Virus record (IMG/VR): IMGVR_UViG_2895548450_000001
Span: 1-64,000 of that record
DNA from: a virus
Taxonomy: Duplodnaviria; Caudoviricetes
Length of the DNA: 64,000 bases
Reading direction: 5' to 3' (one strand)
Position 1 is the first letter of the stretch, and each line of letters begins with the position of its first letter. A program made the translations under genes and the position numbers. Positions 34,520-54,380 of this stretch are shown one piece after another. The notes below the pieces were generated by a model, which had not been told where the DNA came from, did no database searches, and saw only the letters and a program-made list of their open reading frames with translations.

Positions 34520-37018
34520 ATGTATAGCTTGTTATCTAAATCACTTTTTGCTGTTGGGATACCAACCATCCCGTTATTCAAAACCTCTAAGCTTCCGGCT
34601 ATCCCGAAGGATAAGATACAGCACGCGGCTCAAGAGCTACATCAAAAGAACTGGCAAGTCGCTCATGCGGATAAACTGTGTGGTATCGCACTGGGCCAAG
34701 CGCTGATAAACGAAGCGGAGTCGTGCTTAGTGGCGTTAAAACTTGATCACAAGCAAGCTGATTTGAAGCTGGCCCTCTCCCAAAAACTTCCCTCTAACCT
34801 TTGGGTCGTTTCGGAAGGGAACAATCATTACTTAATATTTAAAGCACCGGCCCCATCACCCTGCAGCGAATCGCTAAAGTCATTTACCCTTTTCGCTTCA
34901 GGGGAAGAGTCCGCGCTTTTATCATTCCTTTGCGAAGATACGTTTGTTGTACTGAGTTCTCCAACCCAAACACCAACTGAAGAGGTAATTCAAAATCTGC
35001 CGGTGTTCGAACCGCATCACATCATGGACCTCGTTCAGGAGATAAAGCCAGAATCCGAGCTACAGAAAGAAGCCTACAGCGCCGAAACTAAGACAAAATT
35101 ACACACCTTAGGACAATTAGACGTAATTATACGTTCTTATCTGGCGCATTTTTGCTACGATTTTTTGCTAAATTGTGACAAAAACACCTCGATTCTTCCG
35201 GTTTTGCAGGAAATTGAAGCGCTTTATGACAGTTTTTCGGCCAATTTTGTCAATATAACGCCAAATCATCAAAAAGAGGCCTATTTTCAAGGTTTCTACT
35301 CCCTCATTCACCAAGTCCGTATGTACTACAACCTTCGCCTCCCACCTAACTGGGACGACCATATTGGGGCTAAATTAAGGGACCGGTACCAAATACCGTT
35401 CACTTCAAAGGACACCCAGTATACTTATGAGCGTCTTCAACAGTTCGTTTTTGAAAAAATGTCCGAGGCCATCGGCAATGAAACCCAAATGTTGGAAGCT
35501 TGCCAGTCGGCCATGGAAGAAATTGCACGTTCGTTCACGGTAACGAAACTCGAGGTCGACCAACTTAAACGATATATCTCGCGTCAGTCCGGCATGAAGC
35601 TAAACATGACCAAAATGGATAGCCAGATAACGAACCTTCGCAAACAAGCTAAAGGTGTCTTGGATTTACCTTCGATAGTCTCGGTAGTTATTCAATTCTT
35701 AAGCGCTCAAACCGAACACCGCTTTGATTCAAGTATCGACCCAAATCGACTGTTCCGCTGGATGGGTACCCATTGGGAGCCGGTTGAGGACCATGAGATA
35801 AGCAACATCATAAACACGTACTTCCCGTCTAATTTCACGGACAAGGGTACGCGTAACGTCAAAGCAATACTGACAGCTATCAAAAATAAATTGTCGCTGC
35901 CACTAAGACGCGTAAGCGCTACGGGCGTGAACTTCAATAACGGCTTTGTAAACCCGCATCTTCAATTACTACCCCATGACCCAGATATGGGGTTGACCTA
36001 TACGCTGCCGTTTACGTTTAAGCCCGAGCAGATATTCCCGCCAGAGAAATTAGAAAACTTCCTGTCGGAGATTTGGGAAAACGAGCCCGATAACATCCTC
36101 GCTTTGCAAGAGGCTATGGCGGCAACGTTCTTCAACACCGGCACACTTTTCCAACGGGCCATACTGCTTCACGGCGCATCAAAGTCGGGAAAAAGCCAGG
36201 TGCTAAATATTATCCGCGGACTAATCCCCCCTCAAAAGCGCGTGTCTTTGGCGCCGAACAAATGGGGTGATAACGACGCACTGGCCGCACTTTCAAACAA
36301 GCTGCTTAACCTGTGTGGCGAACTGTCAGAGAACGAGCACATTAACAGCCAGCGCTTCAAGGATATCGTTGATGGGAATGAAGTCACACTTAAGCGAAAC
36401 ATAAACCAGCATAACACCCTGCAGCCCATGGCCACCCATTGGTTCGCATCAAACCATCTTCCTAAAACGAAAGACTTCACCGAAGGCTTTACTCGACGTT
36501 GGTTAATACTGGGACTGGAAAAACCTATTCCGCCCGAGAAAAGAGAGTTGGACCTTGGCAACAAAATTGTCGCGGAAGAGAAAGATAAAATTATCTCTTG
36601 GGCCATCCAAGCGTACCCAAGACTGGTTAATAATCGAGACTATACCCTCTCGAACTCACATCACGAGTTGGTAAGTCAGCTTGGCCAGATGAACAATAAC
36701 GTTCGTCACTTCTTTGAGGCCTCGGGCTACATTGAGCTATCAGACGATTCAATGATAGCGGTATTGAAGTCATTACCCAAAGAAGAGTTGATTGAAGAGC
36801 TTAAGCAGCTCCCTTCAATCTCAGGCAGGGACCTTTACACGCTCTACGCCACCGCAGTAAAGGAATTCAAAAACGGGGCTGTTGTGGATGAAGGTGAGTT
36901 CTATCGAAGAACGAAAGAACTCAGTGGGATATACCAATTCCTTCAAGTCGTGGGTCGTGATTCAAAAAATAGATTAGTTATTCAGTATTACGGACTAGAT
37001 ATTCTCTTAAACGGTTAA
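34520..37018 (+). CDS. D5/P4-family primase-SF3 helicase
   Basis: VNFNNG D5_N motif, Walker A GASKSGKS, FASNHLP and FTRRWLIL SF3 motifs. Confidence 0.88.
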   Translation: MYSLLSKSLFAVGIPTIPLFKTSKLPAIPKDKIQHAAQELHQKNWQVAHADKLCGIALGQALINEAESCLVALKLDHKQADLKLALSQKLPSNLWVVSEGNNHYLIFKAPAPSPCSESLKSFTLFASGEESALLSFLCEDTFVVLSSPTQTPTEEVIQNLPVFEPHHIMDLVQEIKPESELQKEAYSAETKTKLHTLGQLDVIIRSYLAHFCYDFLLNCDKNTSILPVLQEIEALYDSFSANFVNITPNHQKEAYFQGFYSLIHQVRMYYNLRLPPNWDDHIGAKLRDRYQIPFTSKDTQYTYERLQQFVFEKMSEAIGNETQMLEACQSAMEEIARSFTVTKLEVDQLKRYISRQSGMKLNMTKMDSQITNLRKQAKGVLDLPSIVSVVIQFLSAQTEHRFDSSIDPNRLFRWMGTHWEPVEDHEISNIINTYFPSNFTDKGTRNVKAILTAIKNKLSLPLRRVSATGVNFNNGFVNPHLQLLPHDPDMGLTYTLPFTFKPEQIFPPEKLENFLSEIWENEPDNILALQEAMAATFFNTGTLFQRAILLHGASKSGKSQVLNIIRGLIPPQKRVSLAPNKWGDNDALAALSNKLLNLCGELSENEHINSQRFKDIVDGNEVTLKRNINQHNTLQPMATHWFASNHLPKTKDFTEGFTRRWLILGLEKPIPPEKRELDLGNKIVAEEKDKIISWAIQAYPRLVNNRDYTLSNSHHELVSQLGQMNNNVRHFFEASGYIELSDDSMIAVLKSLPKEELIEELKQLPSISGRDLYTLYATAVKEFKNGAVVDEGEFYRRTKELSGIYQFLQVVGRDSKNRLVIQYYGLDILLNG

Positions 37019-37040
37019 TAATCAACCATTAGTCCCTCTA

Positions 37041-37074
37041 GGCGAAAAAACTTTAAACTTTTTTCGCCTTTTTT
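37041..37074 (+). terminator. Intrinsic terminator after the primase
   Basis: GGCGAAAAAA...TTTTTTCGCC followed by a T run. Confidence 0.7.
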
Positions 37075-37289
37075 ATTCCCCCTGTATCACACTTAAAATG
37101 TGTTCAAAAAACTTTCCGATTCACTTTTACCCGTATACAAAAACACACTTTTATTGTGTTTTTTATACGTATGAAAACGCTTACCTAAACGCTCCTAATT
37201 CATTGTCTTGTTTAATTTACACCCTTGACCGACCACTAAATATTTTATACTTTAGTCGACGTTGACAGCGAACAACGTCTTGTATATGC

Positions 37290-37485
37290 ATAGACACCTT
37301 GCCGCTTATCAACCGAGTGGAGGCTCGACACTATCCACTCCTACAATTTGGAAATTGACGATAAAGCCTGTTCTAATTTTAATGCTCGTCCGCATACCTA
37401 GTTTCAAGCTTATCTAACGACAACGACCTCTGATTACGTTGAACGTCTCAAACCCCGAGTGGCCCAACCCTCGGGGTTTTATTTT
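37290..37485 (+). ncRNA. Candidate decoy/sponge RNA carrying a 19-nt perfect target site for the sRNA
   Basis: Hairpin 37315-37340, site 37346-37364, no SD-led ORF, terminator at 37450-37485. The 5' end is uncertain. Confidence 0.35.
37450..37485 (+). terminator. Intrinsic terminator
   Basis: AAACCCCGAG...CTCGGGGTTT then TATTTT. Confidence 0.75.
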
Positions 37486-37662
37486 ATTACTCGCTTTTTA
37501 TTCCTAAGGTTTAGTTTTGGGTCTAGGTTCTCGGGTCTAGTATCTCGTTTTTTGTGTGGAGTTCTCGGGCCTAGGTTCTAGGGTAGTTAGTATAACCTTC
37601 CAAAATCCCAAAAATTTTTCAGGTGGAGTGAGAGGGCCACCCCACTATATCACCTCGTTTTC

Positions 37663-37692
37663 TTGCATAAAAACCACCCCCCCTTATATAGT
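37663..37692 (+). promoter_or_regulatory. Sigma70-like early promoter
   Basis: TTGCAT-18-TATAGT upstream of the first early gene. Confidence 0.45.
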
Positions 37693-37780
37693 GAATGCAA
37701 CTCGGGACACCTACCACGAAACACGGACCGAGGGGGGAACATTCCCCCACCGACAAATTAACTTTTAAGGATTGACGATT

Positions 37781-38500
37781 ATGACTACTACTACCACTTT
37801 CAACGCTTCAGTGTTTGCATCGGCTCTTGTTACTGCTGATAAAAATGATCTACGTGTGCCAGCCGTTAAAATGGCTATCGCTTGCTATGCCGTAGCACAC
37901 AACATGGAAAAAGGCGCTAACATTGCGCTTTGTTGTGACTTGTATGGCGTGCCAGCTAACCAACGTACAAAAGCCAACCGTGACAGCTCACGCCTATACA
38001 ATCAGGCGAAAGGCTATTGGAAAACGTACGTGAAATTCGTAAATGATAACCGCCAATATCTAACCAAGTTTTTCGACGCTATAAAAACGATTGAGTTAAA
38101 CGGCACATTCGCGCAAATCGGTGACAAGGTATTAAACGCGGATATTTACGGCGAAAATGGCGCTCCTCAAGGCCGCGTTGAATGGCTTAACTTCCTAGGC
38201 GAATACTTGCCTAAGGAAGCGAAAGAAGAAAAGCCTAGCAAGGACGCGAAAAGCGAGCCGGTAAAAGGTAAAGATAAGGAAGGCGGAGCAGCTAAGCGTG
38301 CCGCGGATGATAACGTTACAAGTGCTGTTCAGGCCCTTGTTTCTAAGCTTGAAGATCATACTCAAGCGCTGATCAATCATCAGCTTGAGGCCCTAGACGC
38401 GGCCGGTTTACCTAAGGCACACCGCGCAAAAGTGAGTAAAGCCATGCTCGCACTATCGCTTGAGATTCAAAAGGATCTCGAAAAGCAACTAACCAAGTAA
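37781..38500 (+). CDS. Hypothetical early protein
   Basis: Long ORF with motif-linked ATG and its own terminator. Confidence 0.8.
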   Translation: MTTTTTFNASVFASALVTADKNDLRVPAVKMAIACYAVAHNMEKGANIALCCDLYGVPANQRTKANRDSSRLYNQAKGYWKTYVKFVNDNRQYLTKFFDAIKTIELNGTFAQIGDKVLNADIYGENGAPQGRVEWLNFLGEYLPKEAKEEKPSKDAKSEPVKGKDKEGGAAKRAADDNVTSAVQALVSKLEDHTQALINHQLEALDAAGLPKAHRAKVSKAMLALSLEIQKDLEKQLTK

Positions 38501-38540
38501 GCCCAGCGGGGGGAACATTCCCCCCTCAATTCGAGAAACG

Positions 38541-38584
38541 AAAAACCGATTAGCACGGCTAGTGCTAATCGGTTTTTTCTTTTT
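38541..38584 (+). terminator. Intrinsic terminator
   Basis: AAAAACCGATTAGCAC...GTGCTAATCGGTTTTT then a T run. Confidence 0.85.
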
Positions 38585-38661
38585 CGCAAAGCTATTAAGC
38601 GCGTGCCTACATCATGTGTGTACCCGTGTGGGTGTGTGCTGGTGGATGTGTGTACCAGTGC

Positions 38662-38695
38662 CTAGGCTCTAGGCTCTAGGCTCTAGGGTCTAGGC
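38662..38695. repeat. CTAGGCT heptamer tandem repeat
   Basis: CTAGGCT x3, CTAGGGT, CTAGGC; related degenerate copies at 37521-37584 and 39367-39380. Confidence 0.8.
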
Positions 38696-38807
38696 TGGTG
38701 GATTGTGATAGCAATTCGCGTGAAGGGAATTTGGAGAAACTGGGGGCCGTGACTGTCGCGGCGATTTTAGGGGGGAACATTCTCCCCCAATATGAGGGAA
38801 TAATATT

Positions 38808-39068
38808 ATGAAAATACCAATGCGAATTTTGAGACAGAACAAGGGTTTGAATCTGGGGACCACAGAATATATAAACGACAAGAAAGTTTGGTTCCATAAA
38901 CTTGAGTTGGTAGGTACAACCGCTCAGCTTGAGCGCTGGTGGCGAATGCGCCAGCGTAGACCTAATCCACTTAAAGACTTGGATGAGGTTGTTATGTACA
39001 ACGTTGAGCATGAAGGCGTGCTTGAGTGTGCAGAGGTTCAGGAAATAATTGCTCGTTACGAGCGCTAA
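38808..39068 (+). CDS. Hypothetical protein
   Basis: GAGGG RBS; flanked by two palindromes. Confidence 0.7.
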   Translation: MKIPMRILRQNKGLNLGTTEYINDKKVWFHKLELVGTTAQLERWWRMRQRRPNPLKDLDEVVMYNVEHEGVLECAEVQEIIARYER

Positions 39069-39106
39069 TTAAGGGGGGAACATTCCCCCCAGATACAAGG
39101 AAATTG

Positions 39107-39370
39107 ATGATGATTACACGTTCTGATTTAGCTTTATTTATCGCGTTTATGGTTCACTTTATGTTGCTGGTGGCTGGGTTCACGGTCCTCATTTCGAGTC
39201 CCGAGGTCCTGGGATTGGGGGGCGTTACGTGTTGGGCCAGTATACCGCTCTTTTGTATCTCTATCGTGAGTCTCTACGGCGAAAAACTAGACAAAAGAAG
39301 TAACTTGGCGCGGGTGGTATTTCGCTTCAATTGGTGGAAGCTGGCTTTCGTTCTAAAAAATAGAATCTAG
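39107..39370 (+). CDS. Small membrane protein (2 TM)
   Basis: GGAAATTGATGATG start; two hydrophobic segments. Confidence 0.65.
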   Translation: MMITRSDLALFIAFMVHFMLLVAGFTVLISSPEVLGLGGVTCWASIPLFCISIVSLYGEKLDKRSNLARVVFRFNWWKLAFVLKNRI

Positions 39371-39604
39371 AGTCTAGGCTGGTGGTTTTTGGTTCGAGAA
39401 AAAAGGATAAAAAACTCGAATCGAGGCTTGACAGCGAGGAAATTGGAGCAGGTCCGACTTCGACCCAAGGGCCTCTATCCAAGCTTCTCGCATGAGATTA
39501 TGGGACGATTAAAAAGCGTCTGTAAAGCATTTTAAAAACTCGGGTATTCACACATACCCTAAAAAAGGGGGGAACATTCCCCCCCCAATTACGGGAAATT
39601 GACG

Positions 39605-39913
39605 ATGGAATTTAAAAATGTACGTATTCAATTTGGCTGGAATAAGCCGGTTGTTGTCCTCCAATATGGCACCCTGCAATACGAGATTGGCACGCTAGAA
39701 TTGAAGGGCGTAACACTCATGCAGCTAGGCAGTTTGAACCCAGAACACGTAGCAAAGCATCACCAAATGTTGTTAGTTTGCGAAATGAGCACAACAATAA
39801 GACTGGCAAAAACCGATGTTCCCGAGCCAGTTAATACGTGTTCCCGTAAACTTTTTGATGAAACCGCTCTGGAACAGCCAAAAGTAGCACTCAACACCAA
39901 TTTAAGCGCCTAG
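39605..39913 (+). CDS. Hypothetical protein
   Basis: GGAAATTGACGATG start. Confidence 0.65.
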   Translation: MEFKNVRIQFGWNKPVVVLQYGTLQYEIGTLELKGVTLMQLGSLNPEHVAKHHQMLLVCEMSTTIRLAKTDVPEPVNTCSRKLFDETALEQPKVALNTNLSA

Positions 39914-40369
39914 ATTCAAGCACTTAGATTTTGTGTTCCCATAAACTTTCTTGGCCTTTTTTCGCAAATCGTGAAACGGTAGAATGCGGGTTGTAGCTGT
40001 GCAAATTTTGTACAGTTACGCGTAACCGGCACTGCTGCGAAATATCCACGCAATGGCGTGGTTTACAAGGGCTGAAGACGCAGTGGCAAAAATGTTCCCA
40101 CAAACTTTCGTTATTATATGTACATTTATATACTCAACTGAGAACATTTTTTAAGAAGTATACTTTTAAAAACTTTGCTTTCGTTTTAATTCGTACCTAA
40201 GGTTTATTTACACACAATGTTCTCGTTCCTCCTTGTGACTTGCTGCTAGTCGCAGTGATCGGGCAAACGACCTTTGAGTGACGCGCTGTAACCTTTGCGC
40301 GTTTGGGATTTTGGCTTGGCCCTCTCGTCTCACTGTCGCAACGAGCAACAACCCCTAAAAAACGTGAGC

Positions 40370-40440
40370 CACACCCAAATTGTGTTTTTTGGCCTTAACA
40401 GGCCATTGCAATTGACTCGGGCATTTTGCCCTTGTATAAC
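40370..40440 (+). promoter_or_regulatory. Sigma70-like promoter with upstream CACA-N7-TGTG site
   Basis: TTGACT-17-TATAAC (40412-40440); palindrome at 40370-40384. Confidence 0.6.
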
Positions 40441-40501
40441 TGAAATCCGCCCTTCGGGGTGTTACGGCGTGAGCCGATTAATTAACTAGGAAATTGACGA
40501 T

Positions 40502-40888
40502 ATGACTAAATCCATTCCCCAACCTGTAAACCAGACTGCGCCCTCCCCTCACGAACTCATGCGCCAAACCCAGCGCGAGATTGCTGAAGCTGTCATGAAC
40601 ATGAAAGCCAAGCAAATCGAATGTCTCATTGGCCTGTACAGAAAATCGGATGCCTTGGAAGGTACCGACGACCTAGGCGAAATGTATCGTCGTACTCAAA
40701 TGCTCAGTCAAGAACTCGACCTGGACTTTTCCGTCGTCCAAAAACTCGTCGATTTTGGCTTCAATTGTGGTGTTGAATGCGCGGCCTCTATCGCATCCTC
40801 AGCGGGTGCAATGGAAAAGGTGCTAGGTAAGGACGAATCTTGCGAGAAGTCTCCGTGTAGTGACGCTGCGGCGCGAGAATCGGCATAG
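40502..40888 (+). CDS. Hypothetical protein
   Basis: Motif-linked ATG. Confidence 0.7.
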   Translation: MTKSIPQPVNQTAPSPHELMRQTQREIAEAVMNMKAKQIECLIGLYRKSDALEGTDDLGEMYRRTQMLSQELDLDFSVVQKLVDFGFNCGVECAASIASSAGAMEKVLGKDESCEKSPCSDAAARESA

Positions 40889-40919
40889 TAAACACCAACA
40901 ATTAGTGAGATTGACGATT

Positions 40920-41225
40920 ATGAGTGTAAAAGTGACTAAAAGTTCGAATCTAAATTCGATGCTTATGAAACATTGTGTGCGGGTTATTTCTCTTTTGGAT
41001 GAATTGAAAAAGTTGTGTGATTTACAAGGCACGGTTCATCTTGACGGCGATTATCCGTTGGCTATTACGGGGACGGATAGAACGTGTGTTGGCCCTTTCA
41101 ATGTAAGTGGTGGATGGTTTCAGACAATTATCGCCCGTCGTAAAGCCGAAATTATCGATGAGCTCTTCGATATGGGGCATGATCTTACTTCCTTCGAAGA
41201 GCCTGAGGAAGCGGACGATGAGTAA
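40920..41225 (+). CDS. Hypothetical protein
   Basis: Motif-linked ATG at 40920. Confidence 0.65.
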   Translation: MSVKVTKSSNLNSMLMKHCVRVISLLDELKKLCDLQGTVHLDGDYPLAITGTDRTCVGPFNVSGGWFQTIIARRKAEIIDELFDMGHDLTSFEEPEEADDE

Positions 41226-41712
41226 AAACCTCCCTATTTTTCGCCGGATGATTGCCGTTGCACACACGGCTCGAAACTGTGGTCGTTTGGCTATGACGCT
41301 TGAAGGTGAAGATGAGGGCTCTCGGGCCTCAATTGATAACCTCAAGCCGATAACCAAAGACACGCCGCACACGACAATCGAGGGTTACTGTGTCCGTGAC
41401 GAGAAGATTCGGTCCTTGATGGGCTGGAAGTATACGCACTGGATGTTAATTGAATCGGCGTTTATCTGTGCCTTGGTGGAAGAAGTGAGTATCGCGTTGG
41501 AGGATTTTGAAGCGGGGTCGTTGCTGATTGACTCGCTCTTGGGTGTGAATATCCACATTCGCCGGTATTCGGCCGAAGGTATAGGGATTGACCGCGATAA
41601 AATCAAAAGCTTTGCGTGGTTGTATCTGGGCAGTGAATACCTTGATGATTTTATCAGCTATGCCGATTACCTTCTGGCCATGCTTGAGGTGAGAGCCCAA
41701 GACGCTGCGTAA
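41218..41712 (+). CDS. Hypothetical protein
   Basis: ATG overlapping the upstream stop region. Confidence 0.65.
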   Translation: MSKNLPIFRRMIAVAHTARNCGRLAMTLEGEDEGSRASIDNLKPITKDTPHTTIEGYCVRDEKIRSLMGWKYTHWMLIESAFICALVEEVSIALEDFEAGSLLIDSLLGVNIHIRRYSAEGIGIDRDKIKSFAWLYLGSEYLDDFISYADYLLAMLEVRAQDAA

Positions 41713-41780
41713 GATGCGAAGGGGGAGAATGTTCCCCCCCTGATTTGGTAATTAACTTTTAAAAATTGGAAATTGACGTT

Positions 41781-42269
41781 ATGACTAGACTAACTGATTG
41801 TGGTCCTTACACCCCTACTGAGAAACGCGCTATCACTCGAGCGCTAAACATCATTCGTGAGAAACAGCCTAACTTCTATGGGCGCTCAAAGATAACCAAC
41901 GTTGACGCATGTAAAACCTACTGTGCACTACAACTGGCCGATGGTTCTCGCGAACGTTTTCTTTGTCTGTTCCTAGATTCCCAGCATGGTTTGATTGCCG
42001 GTGAAATTCTGTTTGAAGGCACGATAAACTCGGCCTCGGTTTTCCCTCGTGAAATTATTCGTCGTGTTTTAGAGCTGAATGCTGCGGAGGTAATAATCGC
42101 ACATAACCATCCTTCGGGCCATCCTGAGCCAAGCACAGCGGATATTCGTTTGACACAAGAAATTAAACAGGCGTTGTCGGCTATCGATGTGCCGTTACTA
42201 GACCATATCATCGTAGGCAACGGCCAAGGATGCCCAACCATTTCTCTTTCACAACGAGGTGACTTATGA
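41781..42269 (+). CDS. RadC-like JAB-domain protein (UPF0758)
   Basis: RERFLCLFLD, GTINSASVFPREI, AHNHPSGHPEPSTAD and LLDHIIVG signatures. Confidence 0.93.
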   Translation: MTRLTDCGPYTPTEKRAITRALNIIREKQPNFYGRSKITNVDACKTYCALQLADGSRERFLCLFLDSQHGLIAGEILFEGTINSASVFPREIIRRVLELNAAEVIIAHNHPSGHPEPSTADIRLTQEIKQALSAIDVPLLDHIIVGNGQGCPTISLSQRGDL

Positions 42270-42763
42270 GTACCGGTAATTTTCCACTGTTAGAACTGTT
42301 AATCGAGACCATGGAACAAGTGGTTGCGTCTAACCTAGATTTTCGGATGGATGATTTCTATTTGGATAGGGATACCGCAGACCAAGCTACAGATATTCAC
42401 ACTTGTGGTACGGCAGCGTGTGTTGCTGGGTATGGTGCGGTTAACCCTAAAATTCAGAAATTCTTGGAAGTAGATATGCCCTACTTCCGAGCGGCAGAAA
42501 CGGCTGAGGATATTGCGGACTATTTGTTAGAAGAAATCGGCTATTTAGGCTACTCCGTTTTTGCAAGTAAAGCTTACGAAAGATATCAACATGCCGCTGA
42601 TTATCTACCAGAAACCGACCTTGAGTTTGAGCACTTGCACAAAGATGAGCCCGAGGCCAAGGAAACCCTGAAGTACATGAAGCATGTGCTGGCCTTCAAA
42701 GAGCGTGAGCTTAAGCGCTGGGAGCGTGAGGAAGCGGAAGAGGAAGCGGAAGATGAAAAATGA
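42266..42763 (+). CDS. Hypothetical protein (HTCGTAACVAG family)
   Basis: Paralogous to the N-terminal half of 43980-44876. Confidence 0.75.
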   Translation: MSTGNFPLLELLIETMEQVVASNLDFRMDDFYLDRDTADQATDIHTCGTAACVAGYGAVNPKIQKFLEVDMPYFRAAETAEDIADYLLEEIGYLGYSVFASKAYERYQHAADYLPETDLEFEHLHKDEPEAKETLKYMKHVLAFKERELKRWEREEAEEEAEDEK

Positions 42764-43085
42764 GCATGGAATTGAAATTGAACTAGGTACCGTGAGCCGC
42801 GCTACGCACCGGACTCAGGATTTAATCCCGACGTTTCTGGATGTTGTCCGTCAGTATGCCGACGCGGAGTATACCCAGATAATGGCCGCACCTTTCAGCT
42901 TTGTTCCAGCATGGGTAACCGATGAAGGTGACGACTGCGATTGGTGGGACAGTGAAGAGGCCGGTTACAAGCTTGAAGAACTGTTCGATATTTTAGATAA
43001 CCAAGCCCCCGAAGGATATTATTTTGGGGCTCACGAGGGTGATGGTTCTGATTTTGGCTATTGGCCTCTCCCTGATGAGAACTAA
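42753..43085 (+). CDS. Hypothetical acidic protein
   Basis: Coupled start; APEGYYFGAHEGDGSDFGYW. Confidence 0.7.
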   Translation: MKNEHGIEIELGTVSRATHRTQDLIPTFLDVVRQYADAEYTQIMAAPFSFVPAWVTDEGDDCDWWDSEEAGYKLEELFDILDNQAPEGYYFGAHEGDGSDFGYWPLPDEN

Positions 43086-43132
43086 ACGATAACGAGGGTG
43101 GGAACATTCCCCCCCTCTTTTGGAGATTGACG

Positions 43133-43288
43133 ATGCGCCAAGTGTGCAAAAAGTGTGGTGGCACCATGCTAGGAGACGGGTATAAAACGGTTGAGCACTG
43201 CGAGTTTTCTACCGACCCAGAAATTGACTTTATGGCCCCTGATGAAGGGCCAGTTTATTGTGACTTTAAGGAAATTGACGATGAGTGA
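43133..43288 (+). CDS. 51-aa Cys-containing protein (possible zinc ribbon), not in the ORF track
   Basis: GGAGATTGACGATG start; MRQVCKKCGG...HC...YCDFKEIDDE. Confidence 0.7.
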   Translation: MRQVCKKCGGTMLGDGYKTVEHCEFSTDPEIDFMAPDEGPVYCDFKEIDDE

Positions 43289-43769
43289 TTTAAAAGAATT
43301 CAAAATTGTTCTCGAAGAGAGCGATACGGGCCGACAGCTAGTTTTACCTAACGTCATGGCCAGCGATTATGACGTTGCTGAAGCGTATGGTAACCATGTT
43401 GCGGCGGACCTACCGGTTTCTGACATTGACCGACAACAAGGCTTTGGCATGAGTGAAACGTCGTGGTCTTGTTACCCTGAAGAAGTGAAGCCCGAACCTG
43501 AAAAAATGCGTCGTATGGAGTGGAACACGGGTCGTCACTATGGTCCAGAGGGTCAGATTATTCGAGCAGTTGAATATAAAAACGTTGTAGATGAAACCCT
43601 CACGCTGTCGGGCGTCTTGTTGCAGGATATGACTCGAAAGCTTTGCTATCAGATTGAGGACTGTGCTTTCACCCAAACCGCGATCTTACATCGTTACGAC
43701 TTTGGTGGGCATCGTAACTATTCCACAGCCGAGTTCGAAAAAGCCTGGGCGGAGGCCGTAGACGTATGA
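43281..43769 (+). CDS. Hypothetical protein
   Basis: Motif-linked ATG at 43281. Confidence 0.7.
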   Translation: MSDLKEFKIVLEESDTGRQLVLPNVMASDYDVAEAYGNHVAADLPVSDIDRQQGFGMSETSWSCYPEEVKPEPEKMRRMEWNTGRHYGPEGQIIRAVEYKNVVDETLTLSGVLLQDMTRKLCYQIEDCAFTQTAILHRYDFGGHRNYSTAEFEKAWAEAVDV

Positions 43770-43987
43770 GTGAAGACACCCCGAAGATAAAGCGTCCCAG
43801 AAACAAGACGCTTATTGAAGTTATCACTTACCTTGAGTCGATAAACCTAAATGTTTACGGCCCTGCGCTTTGTTTAGAAACGGGTAAAAAGTCCTTTGGT
43901 TTTATGGACTATTCCCCCGAGAACGTACTTAAGTACCGCAAGTTACTGGAAGCGAGAAAAATTGCTGAGGAAATTGACGATGAATAA
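43766..43987 (+). CDS. Hypothetical protein
   Basis: GGAGG RBS, ATGA overlap. Confidence 0.65.
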   Translation: MSEDTPKIKRPRNKTLIEVITYLESINLNVYGPALCLETGKKSFGFMDYSPENVLKYRKLLEARKIAEEIDDE

Positions 43988-44876
43988 CCAACCACCAAAA
44001 GTAAACCCGCGTTTTCCCCTACTCCGCATGTTAATTGCGACGATGGAGGAAGTCGTTAAGGCTGAGTTGCCTTTGAAAATGACTGTCTACTTTGATAGTC
44101 CTGCGGTGGCTAAGGACGCGAAAGATATTCACACCTGTGGAACTCCGGCTTGTGTCGCTGGCTATGGTGCGGTCACGCCAGAAATTCAGAAATTAGTGGG
44201 TGTAGATACCGAGGATTTTCGAAGCCAAATCGCAGCGGAGCAAGTTTTTTGGGCCTTACACCATGAAATAGGCAATCTTGCGGAGTCAATCGTCGCAGGG
44301 TCACTTTATCTAAGACGCTCGGCAGCAGAAACCTATCTCCCCCCTGAGTCCAAACGTTTCCAGCATCTATTAGTGGAGGAACCTACCGCGCTGGACGCGT
44401 TGGAGTTTATGAAGCATGTGCTGGACCTGTTGTTAAATGGCCGTGTTGGAGTGAATGAAAGAAGACAGCCACACCCTCACAGATACACCTCAGAAGAGAT
44501 TTTGGCGGATAAGGATATTGCGTTCTACAACATCCCCGAAAGAGTCAGTTCCGGTATGCCTATTCACTACATAATAGCGGATGAGGAATGGGGCTGGATG
44601 AACTTCGTTGAAGGTAAGTACAGCATTCACGACTACATCATGAAAAACCTTGAGTGGGTTGACCCTGATGATCCTGAAGCGGAAAACCAAGTGCCGGTTC
44701 TCACTATCACTTGTGCCGATGAATTGAGTCGAGCGCTCGATGCCGATTGTGGAGGGGCGGGTAAAGCCGCGTGCTTGGCGGACGATACCGCGCTACAGGC
44801 TATTTTCTTCTCGCTGTATCAAGAAGACTGGAACGAACGTTTGGAGGACTTTGACGATGCCAAAGAAGAAGAATAA
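43980..44876 (+). CDS. Two-domain hypothetical protein (HTCGTPACVAG domain plus acidic domain)
   Basis: Motif-linked ATG; N-half paralogous to 42266-42763. Confidence 0.75.
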   Translation: MNNQPPKVNPRFPLLRMLIATMEEVVKAELPLKMTVYFDSPAVAKDAKDIHTCGTPACVAGYGAVTPEIQKLVGVDTEDFRSQIAAEQVFWALHHEIGNLAESIVAGSLYLRRSAAETYLPPESKRFQHLLVEEPTALDALEFMKHVLDLLLNGRVGVNERRQPHPHRYTSEEILADKDIAFYNIPERVSSGMPIHYIIADEEWGWMNFVEGKYSIHDYIMKNLEWVDPDDPEAENQVPVLTITCADELSRALDADCGGAGKAACLADDTALQAIFFSLYQEDWNERLEDFDDAKEEE

Positions 44877-45117
44877 AAACGTCCACATGATTGTGTGCCG
44901 TAGGCCGAATTCGGAGGAATTTAGTTTCTGGCCTCCGAAGATATTTCATGGTCGCGTTGAAGCTATTGCTGAGTTCGACAGCACGTTTATTAAGTGTGAT
45001 TCCTTTGAGGAAACGGGGAGAAAAGAATACTGCGACCAAACAGGCCAGTTATTGTTTTTTGTAACGTCGGCGGGTTTCCGCTGGCAATTGTATTTAGACC
45101 TAGAACCTAACGATTAA
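44857..45117 (+). CDS. Hypothetical protein
   Basis: GGAGGACTTTGACGATG start. Confidence 0.6.
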   Translation: MPKKKNKNVHMIVCRRPNSEEFSFWPPKIFHGRVEAIAEFDSTFIKCDSFEETGRKEYCDQTGQLLFFVTSAGFRWQLYLDLEPND

Positions 45118-45140
45118 AATTGACGATAAGGAGAAAAGCC

Positions 45141-45368
45141 GTGAGTAAGATTGGATTAATGACCGCTATTGTGGCGGGTATGGGGGCCTCGGTCTCTGGG
45201 GCGTGGGGTGAGAAAGTAAAAGCTTCACACCTCGAGTCTATCAACCTAGCTAAGAAGTACGCGCCGAAGGTCGACCACTTGGGACGAAAGAAGCCTAAAG
45301 GTAGCGCTGCGGTCCAGCGTCGTGAAGCGAAAAAGCGAAAAGCGCTTCGAGCGCGTTCGAAGAAATAG
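45141..45368 (+). CDS. Small basic protein with hydrophobic N-terminus
   Basis: AAGGAG RBS, GTG start; K/R-rich tail. Confidence 0.6.
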   Translation: MSKIGLMTAIVAGMGASVSGAWGEKVKASHLESINLAKKYAPKVDHLGRKKPKGSAAVQRREAKKRKALRARSKK

Positions 45369-45377
45369 GGGTTTTTG

Positions 45378-45563
45378 ATGCAATCCAAGCTATTTAAAAA
45401 CCTCACCCCTGCAAAGGCTGACACGAACTGTTCAAAGTGTCAGTCAGTGATAAGTGACTCAAGACGCCGTGCGATAGAAATGGAACTTGAGTTGATGGGT
45501 TCGAGCAAGAATATCTGCTCGGAGTGTTATGGCCGTGAAGCAGTAATACTTAGCGTGGTTTAG
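45378..45563 (+). CDS. Small CxxC...CxxC protein (DksA/TraR-like Zn finger possible)
   Basis: CSKCQSVISDSRRRA...ICSEC resembles the C4 finger spacing. Confidence 0.5.
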   Translation: MQSKLFKNLTPAKADTNCSKCQSVISDSRRRAIEMELELMGSSKNICSECYGREAVILSVV

Positions 45564-45610
45564 GGGGGAATGTTCTCCCCCCTTTGGAATTAACTTTTTG
45601 GAGATTGACG

Positions 45611-45796
45611 ATGAAAGACGATTTAAAAGATATTGTTCTTAAAAATCTTCTTAAAAAGATTGAGGCTATAAAAATTGAACCTGAAAGATTCGTTGGATAT
45701 CGAGGGGTCAATGAGTGTTATGAACCATCTACCGCGGATGGGGAGAAAGTCAAAGAAGTAAAAAAGCTGGCTAAAAAACTACGCAAGTTAGTTTAG
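45611..45796 (+). CDS. Hypothetical protein
   Basis: Motif-linked ATG. Confidence 0.6.
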   Translation: MKDDLKDIVLKNLLKKIEAIKIEPERFVGYRGVNECYEPSTADGEKVKEVKKLAKKLRKLV

Positions 45797-45826
45797 AAAA
45801 TTAACTCTTAAATTTGGAAATTGACG

Positions 45827-46726
45827 ATGCAAATAAACGTAAACAGTTACTTTAGTGGTGCTGGCCTGATGGATGTTGGGCTGATAAACGCGGGTTTAAC
45901 GATAAACCAAGCGTTTGAAATTGATAAAGACGCGGTTAAGACGTACCGCGAGAATATTGGTTCCCACGTTCAACAGTGCGACTTGACCGAAGAACTGGTG
46001 TTAAATCAAGAAGAGTGTGACGCTATGATCTTCACCTACCCTTGCACCAAGTATTCAACGATTGGTGATATCCACGGGGTTAGAACGGGTGACGAGTTGT
46101 TCCTTCATGCTTTACGCCACTTGGCCATTCGCAAGCCCGATGCTTATGTTGTGGAAAATGTGCCAGGAATGAGAGCGTTCCCGCTGGTAATGGAAGCTAT
46201 GACAAAATTACCAGATTACTACGTTCACGTTTTCTGTCCGGTCCAGTCGCAGCATTGGCTACCCCAGCGTAGAGACCGTTTGATTATTTTTGGTACCCGC
46301 CGACCTTTTGAAGTTCGCCCACCGAAGAACTGTCGTCCGGTCACGCTGGCTGAGATTGTCGAGCACGACCCTGACGTAACGTTACCCAGTGCTATCAAAG
46401 CGCGAATGACGGGTAAGTATCGCGACCTACCAATAATCAGCGACCCGAGCAAAGGTGACTTAGCACCAACCTGTGTTGCTCACTATGCGAAGGACAAATC
46501 AACACGATTACTGGCGGACAAGCGATTCCCCATGGGTGTTCGTCCTTACTCAGTGCGTGAATATGCACGGCTTCAAGGGGTACCAGATTGGTTTACGTTC
46601 CCTGTCTCGGCAACAGCCGCATACCGCCAGATTGGTAATGGTGTATCGGTACCGAAAGGTGAATGGGTAGGCGGCGAGTTGTACCGCTATTTTCAACAAA
46701 GTAAAAAATTAGACAAGGTGGCTTAA
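45827..46726 (+). CDS. C5-cytosine DNA methyltransferase
   Basis: FSGAG motif I, PC catalytic motif (YPCT), ENV, QRRDR, REYARLQG, YRQIGNGV. Confidence 0.95.
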   Translation: MQINVNSYFSGAGLMDVGLINAGLTINQAFEIDKDAVKTYRENIGSHVQQCDLTEELVLNQEECDAMIFTYPCTKYSTIGDIHGVRTGDELFLHALRHLAIRKPDAYVVENVPGMRAFPLVMEAMTKLPDYYVHVFCPVQSQHWLPQRRDRLIIFGTRRPFEVRPPKNCRPVTLAEIVEHDPDVTLPSAIKARMTGKYRDLPIISDPSKGDLAPTCVAHYAKDKSTRLLADKRFPMGVRPYSVREYARLQGVPDWFTFPVSATAAYRQIGNGVSVPKGEWVGGELYRYFQQSKKLDKVA

Positions 46727-47062
46727 ATGAAAGTTGAAGAACTCTTAGACATTGTGGCGAGTCAGGAATGTTTATTTGGAAGTAGTACAAGACTAACTTT
46801 GTTAAGAGAAAAAGCCCTCGTTTCTAAAGTTGAACTTTATGCTGCGGGATGCCGATTAGGGGTTTTTAGGGGTTATGGCTTGGAATCTCGGATAAATCTT
46901 CAAACCTTGAGAGCCCGACTAAATAGTTGCAACCCTCAGACAATAATAACCTCAACACATAAGTCGTTCCCAAGATTCAAAATCGGTTTCTTAGACTACG
47001 AAGAGGGTTGGGTTGAAACTGTGACGTCTGAAGAACTGGGGCTAAGTGAGGACCCGAAATGA
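46727..47062 (+). CDS. Hypothetical protein
   Basis: ORF abutting the MTase stop. Confidence 0.55.
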   Translation: MKVEELLDIVASQECLFGSSTRLTLLREKALVSKVELYAAGCRLGVFRGYGLESRINLQTLRARLNSCNPQTIITSTHKSFPRFKIGFLDYEEGWVETVTSEELGLSEDPK

Positions 47063-47301
47063 AATACGAACTGGTATATCACGATAGGTTTACTCACGAA
47101 CGTCGGACGCAAAATTTCTTTGCCCCGAACCCAGATAAGGCAAAAGAGCACGCTGACCGTATGTGTGAGCGACGTAATGTGTCTTACTGTTTAGTAGATG
47201 CAAATGGTAGAACGTGGGAGCGAGATTATAGTCGAGATACTATGAAGCTCTACGATTGGTTTGAAGTAACAACACAAAGCCCGATACGGGTTGCAAGCTA
47301 A
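47059..47301 (+). CDS. Hypothetical protein
   Basis: GAGG RBS; ATGA-type overlap. Confidence 0.6.
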   Translation: MKYELVYHDRFTHERRTQNFFAPNPDKAKEHADRMCERRNVSYCLVDANGRTWERDYSRDTMKLYDWFEVTTQSPIRVAS

Positions 47302-47309
47302 GGAAATTG

Positions 47310-47591
47310 ATGATGTGTAACTGTTTTGAAGAAACAATGGAAAAAGTAACCGAGCATGTTAAAGAGCAATTGCCGGACAACGTGGAAGAATTTAAAGCCG
47401 AATGGCAGGGCCGAGCTTATATGCTTGCGGAAGGTCAGTATGCTCCAACCAGCCCTAAAATTGAATACGAGTATCGGCCTATGAAGCGAGACGGTACCCC
47501 GCAAAAGAATCTTAAGAAAGATTCAATAACGATACTAGCAAGCCATTGCTGCTATTGTGGTGAGAAGTTCGAACGACCTCAAACGTCGTAA
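47310..47591 (+). CDS. Small Cys-containing protein
   Basis: GGAAATTGATGATG start; MCNC...HCCYCG. Confidence 0.7.
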   Translation: MMCNCFEETMEKVTEHVKEQLPDNVEEFKAEWQGRAYMLAEGQYAPTSPKIEYEYRPMKRDGTPQKNLKKDSITILASHCCYCGEKFERPQTS

Positions 47592-47649
47592 CTCTCGGGG
47601 GAGAATATTCCCCCCTCTTAATTAACTTTTAAATTGGAAATTGACAATT

Positions 47650-48453
47650 ATGACTGATGTTAAACGTATCAATAAACAGGCTACGGCCACGATGCTATTT
47701 GTAATTGCTGACGCGATCACACAACCACGCTTCGTAAAGTTCTTAGAAGATAACACCTCGCGCTTTGGCTCAGATGGTACCGGTACCGTTGAAGAGCTTC
47801 ACGACAAACTACGCCACAATTTTGATTTTCAACTCAAGCAAGCCGTGAGTGTGTTTTCAGAACACTATTCAGTTTTAAGCTGGGAAGAAAAGCTGCAAAT
47901 GATAAGCGAAAAGCTTATCGACTTAGGCAACCGAACGTCTCTTAAGTGGCGCGTAAAGCTACACCAAAGCAGCAAGAAATTTATTGTCCCTCGAGGGGTG
48001 AGTGTATCGAAAGCCCTAACGGACTTAATGTTAAGTGCTCAACCTCACCGAATTATTTTAGCCCAGTCTAGAACCCCTACTCACCCAGACCACGACTGGC
48101 GTTGGGGTGGTGATATTGCCAAGGTCGATATTTTTCTAGCCTCGCTATATAGTTTCGTTATTGCCAAAGACACGCTGGCCTACGACACAGGCATGGTGTT
48201 CTTTGAAGACGTATTAACCGAGTTTGGCAATAAAATCGAATGGTTCGTGAAGGGCTACCCCCACGACTTATTGGTTGTTGACCGCATGATAAACGCGGGG
48301 GCACAGCGTAAAGACTATCAAGGTATAGGATTACGCACGGAGTTCTGTTCTACGTGGTCTATCACTTCCGAAACTAAAAATATCTTGGTTAGTAACGGGT
48401 ATCGAGAACTACGCCATAAAACGTATGGCCGAACTAAACAGGTGGCCGCATGA
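47650..48453 (+). CDS. Hypothetical protein
   Basis: Long ORF after a palindrome and a motif variant. Confidence 0.75.
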   Translation: MTDVKRINKQATATMLFVIADAITQPRFVKFLEDNTSRFGSDGTGTVEELHDKLRHNFDFQLKQAVSVFSEHYSVLSWEEKLQMISEKLIDLGNRTSLKWRVKLHQSSKKFIVPRGVSVSKALTDLMLSAQPHRIILAQSRTPTHPDHDWRWGGDIAKVDIFLASLYSFVIAKDTLAYDTGMVFFEDVLTEFGNKIEWFVKGYPHDLLVVDRMINAGAQRKDYQGIGLRTEFCSTWSITSETKNILVSNGYRELRHKTYGRTKQVAA

Positions 48454-48680
48454 AGAACAACTGTGAAAACCCAGAGTATGACAATTCTCTAGGTGAAGCT
48501 ATTTGCGCGGAATCCCCGACCTTCAACCAAATTGTGGGCGAAGCTTTAAACGACGACTTTTTTGATGAGTCTTTTGTGGATGTTGAGTTTTGGCTTTCTT
48601 CACTCACTCACAAAGGCAAGCGTGTTCAAGTGCAATTGAAAGTAACCGCTGACCCTGAAGACTTTATAGACGAGAACTAA
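48450..48680 (+). CDS. Hypothetical acidic protein
   Basis: ATGA overlap. Confidence 0.6.
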   Translation: MKNNCENPEYDNSLGEAICAESPTFNQIVGEALNDDFFDESFVDVEFWLSSLTHKGKRVQVQLKVTADPEDFIDEN

Positions 48681-48683
48681 ATT

Positions 48684-49835
48684 ATGATGGATAAAATTGA
48701 ATACAAACTCCTGGCCTCTCGAGGCGTGCAAGGTTCAAGACCTTTTTACCAAGTGCTTATCCCTTTGCGCCAGTTGAGTTCGCTTTTGAAACTAGATGAT
48801 CATTGGGATATCACTAAACGTAGCCAACGATTAGTAAATGTCCCGCGTGCTAAGAAGTTCGCAAAGTATCTAATTGAGAATCACAAAAACGATACGATGT
48901 TTGTCGTTCCCCCTCTAGTGGGCTCGTTGGAAGGAGACTTTGACTTCGTTGAAGTGCAAATGGACCAGTATCGAAACATAGGCCATCTGCGTGTGGACCT
49001 CGATGCTCAAATGCTTTTGTTTGATGGCCAGCACCGAGCAAAAGGGGTTCAACTGGCTTTGCAAGAATATCCGATGCTTCAAAACAGCCAAGTATCGATT
49101 ATGCTTTTCCCGATGCTGGATTTATCTGAAAGACAACAAGCATTCCACGATATTAATTCGATGCAAAAGGTACCGGTTGACTCTATCCGCATTGCATACA
49201 ACAACGCGGACCCGATAGCGTCGACATTGATGGATACGGTACAAGCTTCAGATATTCGTGCTGTGGTTGAGTATGAGAAGAACAGTTGTACGGGGGACTC
49301 AGATAAATTCTGGGCACTAAAACAGCTCAATGAGTTTGCCAAGCTATTTTGTGGTAAAGACAACTCACCGGAGCGCATGGCGGAATATTTAAAAGTCTTC
49401 TTAGACAAAATGTTTATCAGCCAAAAACTACGGCAGTTATATACGTCACACCCACATGCTTGTAAGGAATATATACACCCGTCGGCCCAGTTCACGAGAC
49501 AACTCTATATTCTTCCTTTCACCGTGACACTGAAGGCGTTAGCCCTGCTTTTTCGAAAAGCGGAGGAACTTGAAATTGGCCCTGAAGTGCTAAGTAACTT
49601 CTTAGAAGAAAGTAGCCCCAGTAATCATAAAAACTGGCACTACTTCGACAAAGACAACGGCAAGTGGGAACATCGTTGTGTATCTCATGACTACAAAATG
49701 AAGAGTAATGCGGTTGCGGTGCGAATGACGTACTATCAACTGGCTAAAGACGCGGGGATTGAGTTGTCTGAAGAAGAACTCGCGGAAGAAGAAAAGGTCC
49801 TGGCTGAAGCAAAAGCGATTGCTGCAGCCGTTTAA
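48684..49835 (+). CDS. DGQHR-domain (DndB-like) protein
   Basis: RGVQGSRPFY, RSQRLVNVPRA, LFDGQHR and QQAFHDIN match DndB-family motifs. Confidence 0.88.
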   Translation: MMDKIEYKLLASRGVQGSRPFYQVLIPLRQLSSLLKLDDHWDITKRSQRLVNVPRAKKFAKYLIENHKNDTMFVVPPLVGSLEGDFDFVEVQMDQYRNIGHLRVDLDAQMLLFDGQHRAKGVQLALQEYPMLQNSQVSIMLFPMLDLSERQQAFHDINSMQKVPVDSIRIAYNNADPIASTLMDTVQASDIRAVVEYEKNSCTGDSDKFWALKQLNEFAKLFCGKDNSPERMAEYLKVFLDKMFISQKLRQLYTSHPHACKEYIHPSAQFTRQLYILPFTVTLKALALLFRKAEELEIGPEVLSNFLEESSPSNHKNWHYFDKDNGKWEHRCVSHDYKMKSNAVAVRMTYYQLAKDAGIELSEEELAEEEKVLAEAKAIAAAV

Positions 49836-49894
49836 CTTAGGGGGGAATGTTCTCCCCCTTCAATTAACTTTTAACAATTTGGAAATTGACGATT

Positions 49895-51280: not shown

Positions 51281-51897
51281 TGGACTCATCTGTTTATGTA
51301 AGACCGAACAAACCAAAGCATGTTACCGCGCCTGAAAAAGTAGAACTCGAGCCTATCGAGTTCTCCGAGGCCCCTAAACCTGTTGTGGTTCATGCCTCAA
51401 CGGAATGCCACGTTACGCCTCCGGCGGTAGCTGCGCGTATGGCCGAACTCTTAGAGCTGGAACCGGACGATAAGGTTCTCGAACCTTCAGGTGGTACCGG
51501 TAATTTGGTTCAGGCTGTTATAGCTAAGGGTCACGATGCGGACCGAATAAACGTTGTGGAGCGAGACTACTCCTTAATTCAAGCGTTGTTGTCTCGTTTT
51601 AGTATGGCGGATAGTGACGGGGTTACCCCTTTGATTTACCACGAAGACTTTCTTACCTGGGCAGAGGCCCGTTACAACGCAGGGTATCGTTATGAAAAGA
51701 TCATAATGAATCCACCATTCAAACAGGTAAAAGCGCACATGGAAGCCGCACGTAAGTTACTTCGCTTCACTGGGGTTCTTGTTGCAGTGGTACCCACGAC
51801 GTTCGACCACCCCAGTTATGAGGAAGTTGAGACGTTACCTAGTGACACGTTTAGCACCTGTAAGGTGTTTACTAAAATCGTGCGGTACGAGGCGTAA
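51280..51897 (+). CDS. Amino (N6-adenine-type) methyltransferase
   Basis: VLEPSGGTG SAM-binding and IIMNPPF catalytic motifs. Confidence 0.85.
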   Translation: MDSSVYVRPNKPKHVTAPEKVELEPIEFSEAPKPVVVHASTECHVTPPAVAARMAELLELEPDDKVLEPSGGTGNLVQAVIAKGHDADRINVVERDYSLIQALLSRFSMADSDGVTPLIYHEDFLTWAEARYNAGYRYEKIIMNPPFKQVKAHMEAARKLLRFTGVLVAVVPTTFDHPSYEEVETLPSDTFSTCKVFTKIVRYEA

Positions 51898-51899
51898 TC

Positions 51900-52091: not shown

Positions 52092-52147
52092 ACCTTAACG
52101 GGGGGAATGTTCTCCCCCCCTTTTAATTAACTTGTTGGAAATTGACG

Positions 52148-53140: not shown

Positions 53141-53199
53141 TAACACATTCAAGGGGGGGAATGTTCTCCCCTTTTTAATTAACTTGTTGGAGATTGACG

Positions 53200-54353: not shown

Positions 54354-54380
54354 AAAAAAGAGCGGCTAAGCCGCTCTTTT
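54354..54380. terminator. Bidirectional terminator
   Basis: AAAAAAGAGCGGC-TAA-GCCGCTCTTTT between convergent genes. Confidence 0.75.

Follow-up and report, generated by a model that had tools for sequence, protein, structure and literature searches.

A conserved noncoding transcription unit in a family of temperate phages and its possible role as a target mimic of a phage small RNA

The DNA considered here (the window) is the first 64 kb, positions 1 to 64,000, of the 90.8-kb virus record IMGVR_UViG_2895548450_000001 (Duplodnaviria; Caudoviricetes), a marine phage, which we call G000. The minus strand of the window encodes the structural genes of a siphovirus (terminase, portal, major head protein, tape measure, and central tail fiber), and the plus strand, from 34 kb onward, encodes replication genes, including one for a primase of 832 amino acids (aa) at 34520 to 37018. 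Our subject is a short unit downstream of the primase gene, here called B, which is predicted to specify a noncoding RNA (37258 to 37485, plus strand). The original prediction held that B carries the best match to the seed of a phage small RNA (sRNA), here called A, and that it is a candidate sponge, or anti-sRNA, for A.

Six genomes were compared, that of G000 and those of five relatives (G001 to G005). The G000 record has three matches to tyrosine recombinases and is classed as a provirus. Because an integrase was found in all five related records too (and thus in 6 of 6 genomes), the phage family is temperate. Of the isolated phages, KB12-38 (MF098558.1), a temperate phage of Pseudoalteromonas, is nearest; its capsid protein is 58.5% identical, and its annotation includes an integrase and an excisionase. 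Going by this isolate, our guess is that the host is Pseudoalteromonas-like. Among deposited phages, there was no DNA similar to the region from 36900 to 37900.

Unit B, downstream of the primase gene

All of the features of this region described here lie on the plus strand. The primase gene is closed by a terminator at 37040 to 37075, which consists of an 11-pair stem (37040 to 37069) and a T-run and is kept in relatives. Judging from its sequence, this terminator separates unit B from transcription upstream, as had been predicted. The promoter-like element of B follows at 37226 to 37257; it consists of TTGACC (37226 to 37231), a spacer of 15 nucleotides (nt), and TATACTTTAGT (37247 to 37257), and it can alternatively be read as TTGACC-17-TACTTT. 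This element is absent from the output of a simple sigma-70 scan, and it was overlooked in the original prediction, which noted, correctly, that the TTGACA at 37263 to 37268 has no good −10 sequence and took the unit to lack a promoter. The predicted RNA would be about 200 to 230 nt long, with approximate ends; its 5′ end is uncertain by several nt.

Within B, a 5′ hairpin at 37315 to 37340 is formed by GAGTGGA (37315 to 37321) and TCCACTC (37334 to 37340), just as first described, and it stands immediately 5′ of a sequence motif. The 19-mer ATTTGGAAATTGACGATAA, at 37346 to 37364, is complementary to the seed of A over all 19 nt; it is an exact second copy of 16402 to 16420 (plus strand), and there is no third exact copy. 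Allowing three or fewer mismatches, the 19-mer has 13 matches versus 0.03 expected, and none of 100 shuffles reached 13. The motif core, GGAAATTGACGAT, is at 37350 to 37362, and the next triplet is ATA, where ATG would be expected. The unit ends, at 37445 to 37485, in a conserved GTCTCAAACCC tag, a terminator hairpin, and a U-tail. The stem of this hairpin is made of CCCCGAG (37453 to 37459) and CTCGGGG (37470 to 37476), and the T-run reaches 37485, which bears out the claim of a strong terminator 3′ of the site.

The unit is conserved. In IMG/VR, nine loci have primases 72 to 84% identical to that of the window, and all nine carry a related unit directly downstream. Six of these B units were found by motif scanning and alignment; the three at the 72% loci had diverged and were recognized by reading the sequence. 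Metagenome contigs were scanned with a gapped pattern, and this gave variants of type 1 plus a third, more diverged type (L158, a 2.3-kb contig). Overall, the 288 loci scanned yielded 12 B sequences that differ from one another; nine belong to type 1, two to type 2, and one to type 3. Common to all 12 are the two promoter blocks, TTGACC and TATACTTTAGT, which are identical throughout and are separated by 15 nt that vary in sequence but not in length; a hairpin just upstream of (T/C)ACAAT; the core GGAAAT(T/C)GACGA; and the GTCTCAAACCC tag, which precedes a T-run and a terminator hairpin that comes in three sequence forms, the hairpin standing before the T-run. Between types, the sequence from the core to the terminator (the body) is unrelated. 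Because the body differs wholly between types while the motif stays, the motif appears to be the functional core of B. Searches with the promoter pattern did not extend the set: a 14-base pattern gave mostly chance matches among the at least 112 stretches listed, and a 16-base pattern gave 22 stretches, 13 of them new, none of which was B-like.

Among six type 1 sequences, identity was 97% in the motif, 94% in the terminator, and 90% in the body. The flanking spacers, in contrast, were 52 to 57% identical, and the adjacent primase gene has a nucleotide identity of 76%. By this comparison (90 to 97% versus 52 to 57% and 76%), B is under stronger selection than its neighbors.

Some of this conservation is of structure. 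The 5′ hairpin has the same position in every type, with stems that are unrelated (GAGTGGA/TCCACTC, GGAGC/GCTCC, CCCC/GGGG, and GGGAATC/GATTCCC). The terminator stem shows compensatory changes, and it has G-U variants, in L005 and L163, that are valid only on the plus strand; these U-G pairs fit an RNA transcribed from that strand. The GTCTCAAACCC tag occurs once per genome in the five whole genomes scanned and is found in L158 too. Applied to an alignment of eight sequences, RNAalifold paired UGGAA with UUCUA and left AUUGACGAU in the loop, and the fold of the single B sequence had a z score of −2.87. No Rfam 15 family matched anywhere in the window at gathering thresholds; in a permissive Rfam search, the best scores were 18.8 bits for B (threshold, 55) and 17.2 bits for A (threshold, 50).

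No start codon follows the core in any of the three types, the triplets there being ATA, AAC, and ATT. The original prediction had reported no gene start and only an 11-codon open reading frame (ORF), and this too agrees with the comparison: the frame, which begins with ATG at 37382, is not conserved, and relatives have GTG in place of ATG, a lost stop codon, and indels of 1 nt and 2 nt. The ORF listing also includes a 51-aa frame that begins with TTG, at 37262 to 37417. With its own promoter-like element, a 5′ hairpin, a terminator, and a motif that lacks a start codon in all three types, B is, by these features, a conserved, self-contained, noncoding transcription unit. The earlier description of B as noncoding thus stands, with a promoter-like element added to it.

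The start-site motif and RNA A

The motif in B is one of a large family. TTGACGAT has 44 sites in the 90.8-kb record, almost all of them oriented in the same sense as the genes around them, and ATTGACGAT has 34 sites in the window versus 0.44 expected. In its stereotyped form, (A)ATTTGGA(A/G)ATTGACGAT(G), the motif precedes about 40 genes. At 34 of 42 sites (two orphan copies were excluded), ATG or GTG begins inside the final GAT or 1 to 3 nt beyond it; therefore, GGA(A/G) lies at Shine-Dalgarno distance and ATTGACG forms a conserved spacer. The remaining eight sites lack a start codon so placed; in several of them, TAA comes next, then another Shine-Dalgarno-like sequence, and finally a start codon (examples are at 365, 14233, 33940, 45120, and 58781). 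Judged by its placement, the motif is the phage's translation-initiation signal. We also considered it as the −35 sequence (TTGAC) of a promoter and rejected this, as the motif abuts start codons and nothing is conserved at −10 distance.

The complement of the motif forms part of RNA A, a predicted sRNA of about 80 nt encoded on the minus strand (approximately 16368 to 16446) in a conserved intergenic region between two minus-strand tail genes. A is predicted to consist of a 5′ hairpin, a single-stranded AUCGUCAAUUU seed (the anti-motif), and a terminator. Its promoter-like element, TTGACA-17-TAGTAT, is at 16453 to 16481 on the same strand. In six of six aligned sequences, the −35 block is invariant, and the −10 block is TAGTAT, TAATAT, or TAATCT, which keeps T1, A2, and T6. 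The terminator reads AACGCCUCAGC-CUU-GCUGGGGUGUU, followed by a U-run; in the G005 type, one of its pairs is changed from C-G to U-A, which is compensatory, and several of its pairs are G-U pairs that would be C-A if read on the plus strand. The predicted fold of A has a z score of −3.60. A hairpin at 16447 to 16466 was tried as a plus-strand terminator and rejected, since relatives do not keep it and its position coincides with that of the promoter on the minus strand. A distance of 21 kb separates A from B, and nearly all motif sites are located elsewhere than at A; A therefore would act in trans and does not fit a cis-antisense RNA with a single target. From these features, it is credible that A is a trans-acting sRNA of about 80 nt with a seed complementary to the gene-start motif.

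The seed changes along with the motif. A guanine pairs with both C and U. In G005, the seed of A carries G where those of the other genomes carry A, and G005 alone has both TCGACGAT, at 14 sites, and TTGACGAT, at 18; in each of the other four genomes, TTGACGAT has 36 to 38 sites and TCGACGAT has 0 or 1. The B of the G005 type carries the C variant too. This three-way T-to-C covariation was at first sight proof of pairing, but we downgraded it because 14 of the 32 sites share the C. In KB12-38, the motif, which is shorter, is TTTGGATTGACA (TTTGGATTGACAnnATG before many genes). At the same tail intergenic position as A, this phage carries the complement of its motif (CTATTTGGATTGACAATAT on the plus strand), together with a minus-strand promoter (TTGACT-17-TACTAT) and a terminator. 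There are, then, only two independent changes, in G005 and in KB12-38, and both are as pairing would predict.

In Achromobacter phage JWF, a distant relative, the 50 kb examined showed no dominant k-mer, and the genes leave no intergenic space where A would lie. When the tail protein neighboring A was used in an alignment-based search, only known contigs were returned (12 loci). A 17-mer scan of genome contigs gave at least 120 stretches, and nhmmer found neither A nor B in those listed.

The first gene after B has at its start (37770 to 37783) a short form of the motif, AAGGATTGACGATTATG, that is without the consensus AA; the calculated duplex of this site with A is −12.8 kcal/mol. Five of six aligned type 1 sequences keep the short form (L009 has GGAATTGACGAT), the spacing of which equals that of the KB12-38 motif.

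Target mimicry and competing explanations

In the window, B is perfectly complementary to A over 19 nt; two ordinary gene-start sites, at 55661 and 80104, reach 18 nt. The calculated seed duplex of B with A is −25.7 kcal/mol versus −24.9 kcal/mol for the next sites, a difference of 0.8 kcal/mol. When whole RNAs were folded together, A and B gained −17.4 kcal/mol (ΔΔG, the change in folding free energy) through a duplex of 18 base pairs (bp), versus −2.1 to −9.3 kcal/mol for 20 controls with a scrambled motif. Ten real gene-start contexts folded with A gave values of −14.2 to −26.7 kcal/mol. In these models, B is a competent A site of ordinary strength. Its peculiarity, as far as sequence can tell, is that the motif site is housed in a conserved untranslatable RNA.

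The reading that we prefer, tentatively and with rather less than even confidence, is that B is a target mimic (a sponge or anti-sRNA) of A. RNA B would be transcribed from its own sigma-70-like promoter (37226 to 37257) and ended by the terminator at 37453 to 37485. RNA A would pair with motif-bearing ribosome-binding sites, masking the start codon as well as the Shine-Dalgarno sequence. B, an untranslatable copy of a start site, would compete for A and relieve its block, and a ProQ/FinO-domain protein encoded by the phage would be the likely chaperone of one or both RNAs. The transcription of A and B, their pairing in vivo, the direction and timing of the effect, and a link to the decision between lysis and lysogeny are what we infer from these sequences. 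The four sequencing runs listed for this DNA are all runs of DNA.

The protein in question has 168 aa and is encoded beyond the window, at G000:75667-76173 (L291:1366-1872). PF04352 matches it at G000:75802-76032 with 47.8 bits when the genome was searched and 47.1 bits when the ORF was scanned by itself (cutoff, 27). A ProQ/FinO-domain ORF is present in six of six genomes, and one is annotated in KB12-38. In the accessible part of one report, the FinO domain is said to require a terminator hairpin together with four or more U residues at the 3′ end, and RNAs specific to ProQ are said to have an A-rich 5′ flank (PMC7367173). The 3′ end of B has a conserved CAAA, the stem, and UUUUAUUUU, and that of A has CCAAAUCAA, the stem, and a U-run. 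Both RNAs thus match the description of a ProQ ligand, which is circumstantial. According to the accessible part of a review, FinO-family proteins encoded by phages exist, and FinO and FopA aid the pairing of antisense RNAs with ribosome-binding sites on their own plasmids (PMC9977716). That a temperate phage has a ProQ/FinO-domain protein makes an RNA switch plausible. The start site of the ProQ-like gene itself has a degenerate motif, TAAATTGACGAG, with a calculated A duplex of only −11.5 kcal/mol; with a motif so degenerate and a duplex so weak, this gene might escape A.

The proposal can be extended to a three-part circuit, in which A clamps the nearly identical initiation regions of about 40 early and late genes, as an RNA operator system spanning the genome, B releases them as a dedicated RNA antirepressor that imitates a start site, and the ProQ/FinO-domain protein matches both RNAs, the whole being a master switch for the maintenance of lysogeny or for lytic timing. 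We think this extended form doubtful, although it may be true.

Several observations weigh against B being a mimic of A. The repression of translation by A, on which the proposal depends, we infer from sequence. The claim that B is the best-matching site holds for G000, G001, and G004, where B is the top trans site (second overall, behind A's own locus), but it fails elsewhere: B is first among trans sites in only three of five genomes, by about 1 kcal/mol, and it ranks 10th of 38 in G003 and 26th of 32 in G005, where it has 12 contiguous nt. When local structure is included, A pairs more strongly with 2 of the 10 gene-start contexts than with B (−22.2 and −26.7 versus −17.4 kcal/mol). The C in the G005 B is weak evidence of matching to the seed, since 14 of the 32 consensus motif sites in that genome have it. 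The predicted folds of single sequences around the B motif differ between types. With only one site per molecule, B would have to be abundant to titrate A. Finally, KB12-38 has A, but a B-like unit was not found there, so that B is not required for the A system.

B could instead be a decoy for a protein that recognizes the motif (a phage translational regulator) or for the 30S subunit, in the style of CsrB and CsrA. CsrB and RsmZ present many GGA hairpins to one protein and, like B, are noncoding RNAs showing GGA-containing mimics of ribosome-binding sites. It agrees with such a role that conservation across types covers exactly the 12-nt core common to gene starts, that this core has GGA at Shine-Dalgarno distance from the start codon, and that the flanks, which would lengthen the pairing with A, are not conserved. 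We nevertheless consider it improbable. Our analysis turned up no candidate protein, and B has, unlike CsrB and RsmZ, one 13-nt site only, as well as an evident RNA partner. Recognition of RNA by RNA is also simpler, because the unpaired seed of A exactly complements the motif and covaries with it.

To the same degree improbable, in our view, is that B plays an independent role, for instance at the neighboring repeats, a candidate origin or operator, and is simply one more target of A. B does sit between the primase gene and iteron-like GGGTCTAGGTTCTC repeats, the copy number of which is variable among relatives, and the type 1 body is 90% conserved over about 100 nt, which would not be required of a sponge. 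Across the three types, however, it is the motif that is conserved and not the body. B also ends before the repeats, and outside the motif family no further complementarity to the genome of at least 14 nt was found.

Marginally less probable still is an anti-antisense activator, in which B would free the start site of the tail gene at 15810 to 16298 from the anti-motif in a late minus-strand transcript. The motif and start codon of this gene (16296 to 16309, minus strand) can pair in cis with the anti-motif if transcription reads through the A terminator. The 170-nt read-through leader folds with a closing helix of 13 bp between the anti-motif and the start site (z = −4.67), and in the window B would displace these 13 bp with 19 bp; moreover, the anti-motif, the tail-gene start site, and B of G005 all share one variant. 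In G005, on the other hand, B gives 12 bp versus 13 in cis, and in KB12-38 the cis site fits the seed worse than other gene starts do. Read-through has to be assumed, because A has a promoter to itself and ends in a strong terminator ahead of the tail gene, and the genome-wide motif would be left unexplained. DsrA and RprA activate rpoS by an anti-antisense mechanism. Such sRNAs, StxS among them, resemble the strand of the ribosome-binding site and pair with the inhibitory strand of the leader, a likeness that B would have under this explanation only. Unlike in DsrA-type leaders, the inhibitory strand here doubles as the seed of an independently terminated sRNA. StxS acts on rpoS, according to the accessible part of PMC12197685. 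Whether B is a mimic or an anti-antisense activator, its pairing partner would be the anti-motif element.

It is considerably less likely that B is a leader or attenuator, from which terminator read-through would feed the rightward early operon. B is co-oriented with the downstream genes, and its promoter, structured leader, and terminator resemble the layout of an attenuator, but its terminator is strong and conserved, and a separate conserved promoter-like block, TTGCAT-18-TATAGT (approximately 37665 to 37695), lies between B and the next gene. That B is a small protein gene (the 11-codon or the 51-aa frame) or a decayed, functionless gene start is very improbable, as neither frames nor stop are conserved, indels break the frames, and the conservation of B is too high for a decaying relic.

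Neighboring features and relation to known RNA systems

Several other features of the region and its relatives were recorded. The iteron-like GGGTCTAGGTTCTC repeats lie just past the B terminator, at 37505 to 37575; they vary in sequence as well as in copy number, similar GGTTCTGGG repeats are found in KB12-38, and the role of the repeats may be that of an origin or operator array. The block that follows, at 37575 to 37700, is 95% identical among relatives and contains a GGTGG...CCACC hairpin and the TTGCAT-18-TATAGT sequence; this block is probably the early promoter for rightward transcription. Two conserved ACACA-N-TGTGT palindromes (37088 to 37106 and 37140 to 37166) lie in the interval from the primase terminator to the B promoter and are potential hairpins, additional terminators, or operator sites. 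Another family of hairpins in intergenic positions, the second, is GGGGAAYRTTCCCC, which has 12 matches versus 0.02 expected on the plus strand from 37734 to 53169, usually 15 to 30 nt upstream of a start-site motif. Inside the rightward arm is a leftward gene pair, at 55129 to 55497 and 54366 to 55124 (both on the minus strand). The first of these genes encodes an XRE-type helix-turn-helix domain and has a motif copy at 55436 followed by TAA; the pair (54366 to 55497) is a possible repressor module. No tRNA or tmRNA genes were found.

KB12-38 has, at 41440 to 41570, a hairpin and an orphan motif copy 53 nt upstream of a real start-site motif (of the gene at 41568). This copy may be a decoy within a 5′ untranslated region in a phage without B. 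In the tail region, a stretch of 1.3 kb (15700 to 17000 of the window) is 99% identical between the window and G003 (L010), while their primase genes are 76.6% identical; this difference indicates recent recombination between lineages.

AgvB and AsxR of enterohemorrhagic Escherichia coli are prophage-encoded anti-sRNAs. Like these two RNAs and the sponge SroC, B would be an untranslated mimic of an mRNA target site that pairs with the seed of an sRNA, and AgvB and AsxR supply the precedent for encoding it in a prophage. These known examples soak up host sRNAs, whereas here the sRNA and its mimic would both be phage genes. B differs further in that it would mimic the phage's own start motif, shared by about 40 genes, and in that it has its own promoter and terminator and is not cut from an mRNA. 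SroC is described as a sponge of the sRNA GcvB in the accessible part of PMC4474525.

Parallels for the combination of parts are FinP/FinO/traJ and Inc/FopA/repZ, in each of which, as here, a mobile element has a FinO-domain protein and an antisense RNA against its own ribosome-binding site (accessible part of PMC9977716). Each of FinP and Inc is antisense in cis to one target, and neither is known to have a mimic dedicated to it. RNA A, in contrast, would regulate a repeated motif in trans, with B as a third RNA component.

The immunity RNAs of phages include P1 c4 and the P4 CI RNA. Phage immunity and antisense RNAs are small, and they block the translation or transcription of phage genes in lysogeny decisions. 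P22 sar and lambda OOP are antisense RNAs of this kind (accessible part of PMC12197685, a 2025 review of phage sRNAs). All four of these RNAs have one or a few targets, and in the accessible part of the same source, neither a start-site target shared across a genome nor an RNA decoy is described for them. More generally, no phage that combines a long start-site motif common to its genes, an sRNA of its own matching that motif, a dedicated RNA mimic, and a ProQ/FinO protein appeared in the accessible literature on the motif, phage sponges, phage FinO-domain proteins, and phage sRNAs, supplementary tables aside (Table S1 of PMC12197685 includes 38 phage sRNAs to which no function is ascribed). 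Sponges, anti-sRNAs from prophages, and antisense control aided by FinO are known; what would be new is a pair, internal to one phage, of an sRNA and its mimic, and a start-site motif shared across the genome.

If the proposal is true, it would explain why the spacer from the Shine-Dalgarno sequence to the start codon is conserved throughout a genome, and A and B would be the first RNA partners of phage-encoded FinO-domain proteins. Together, the two RNAs and the protein would constitute a compact and portable three-part system for the global control of translation.

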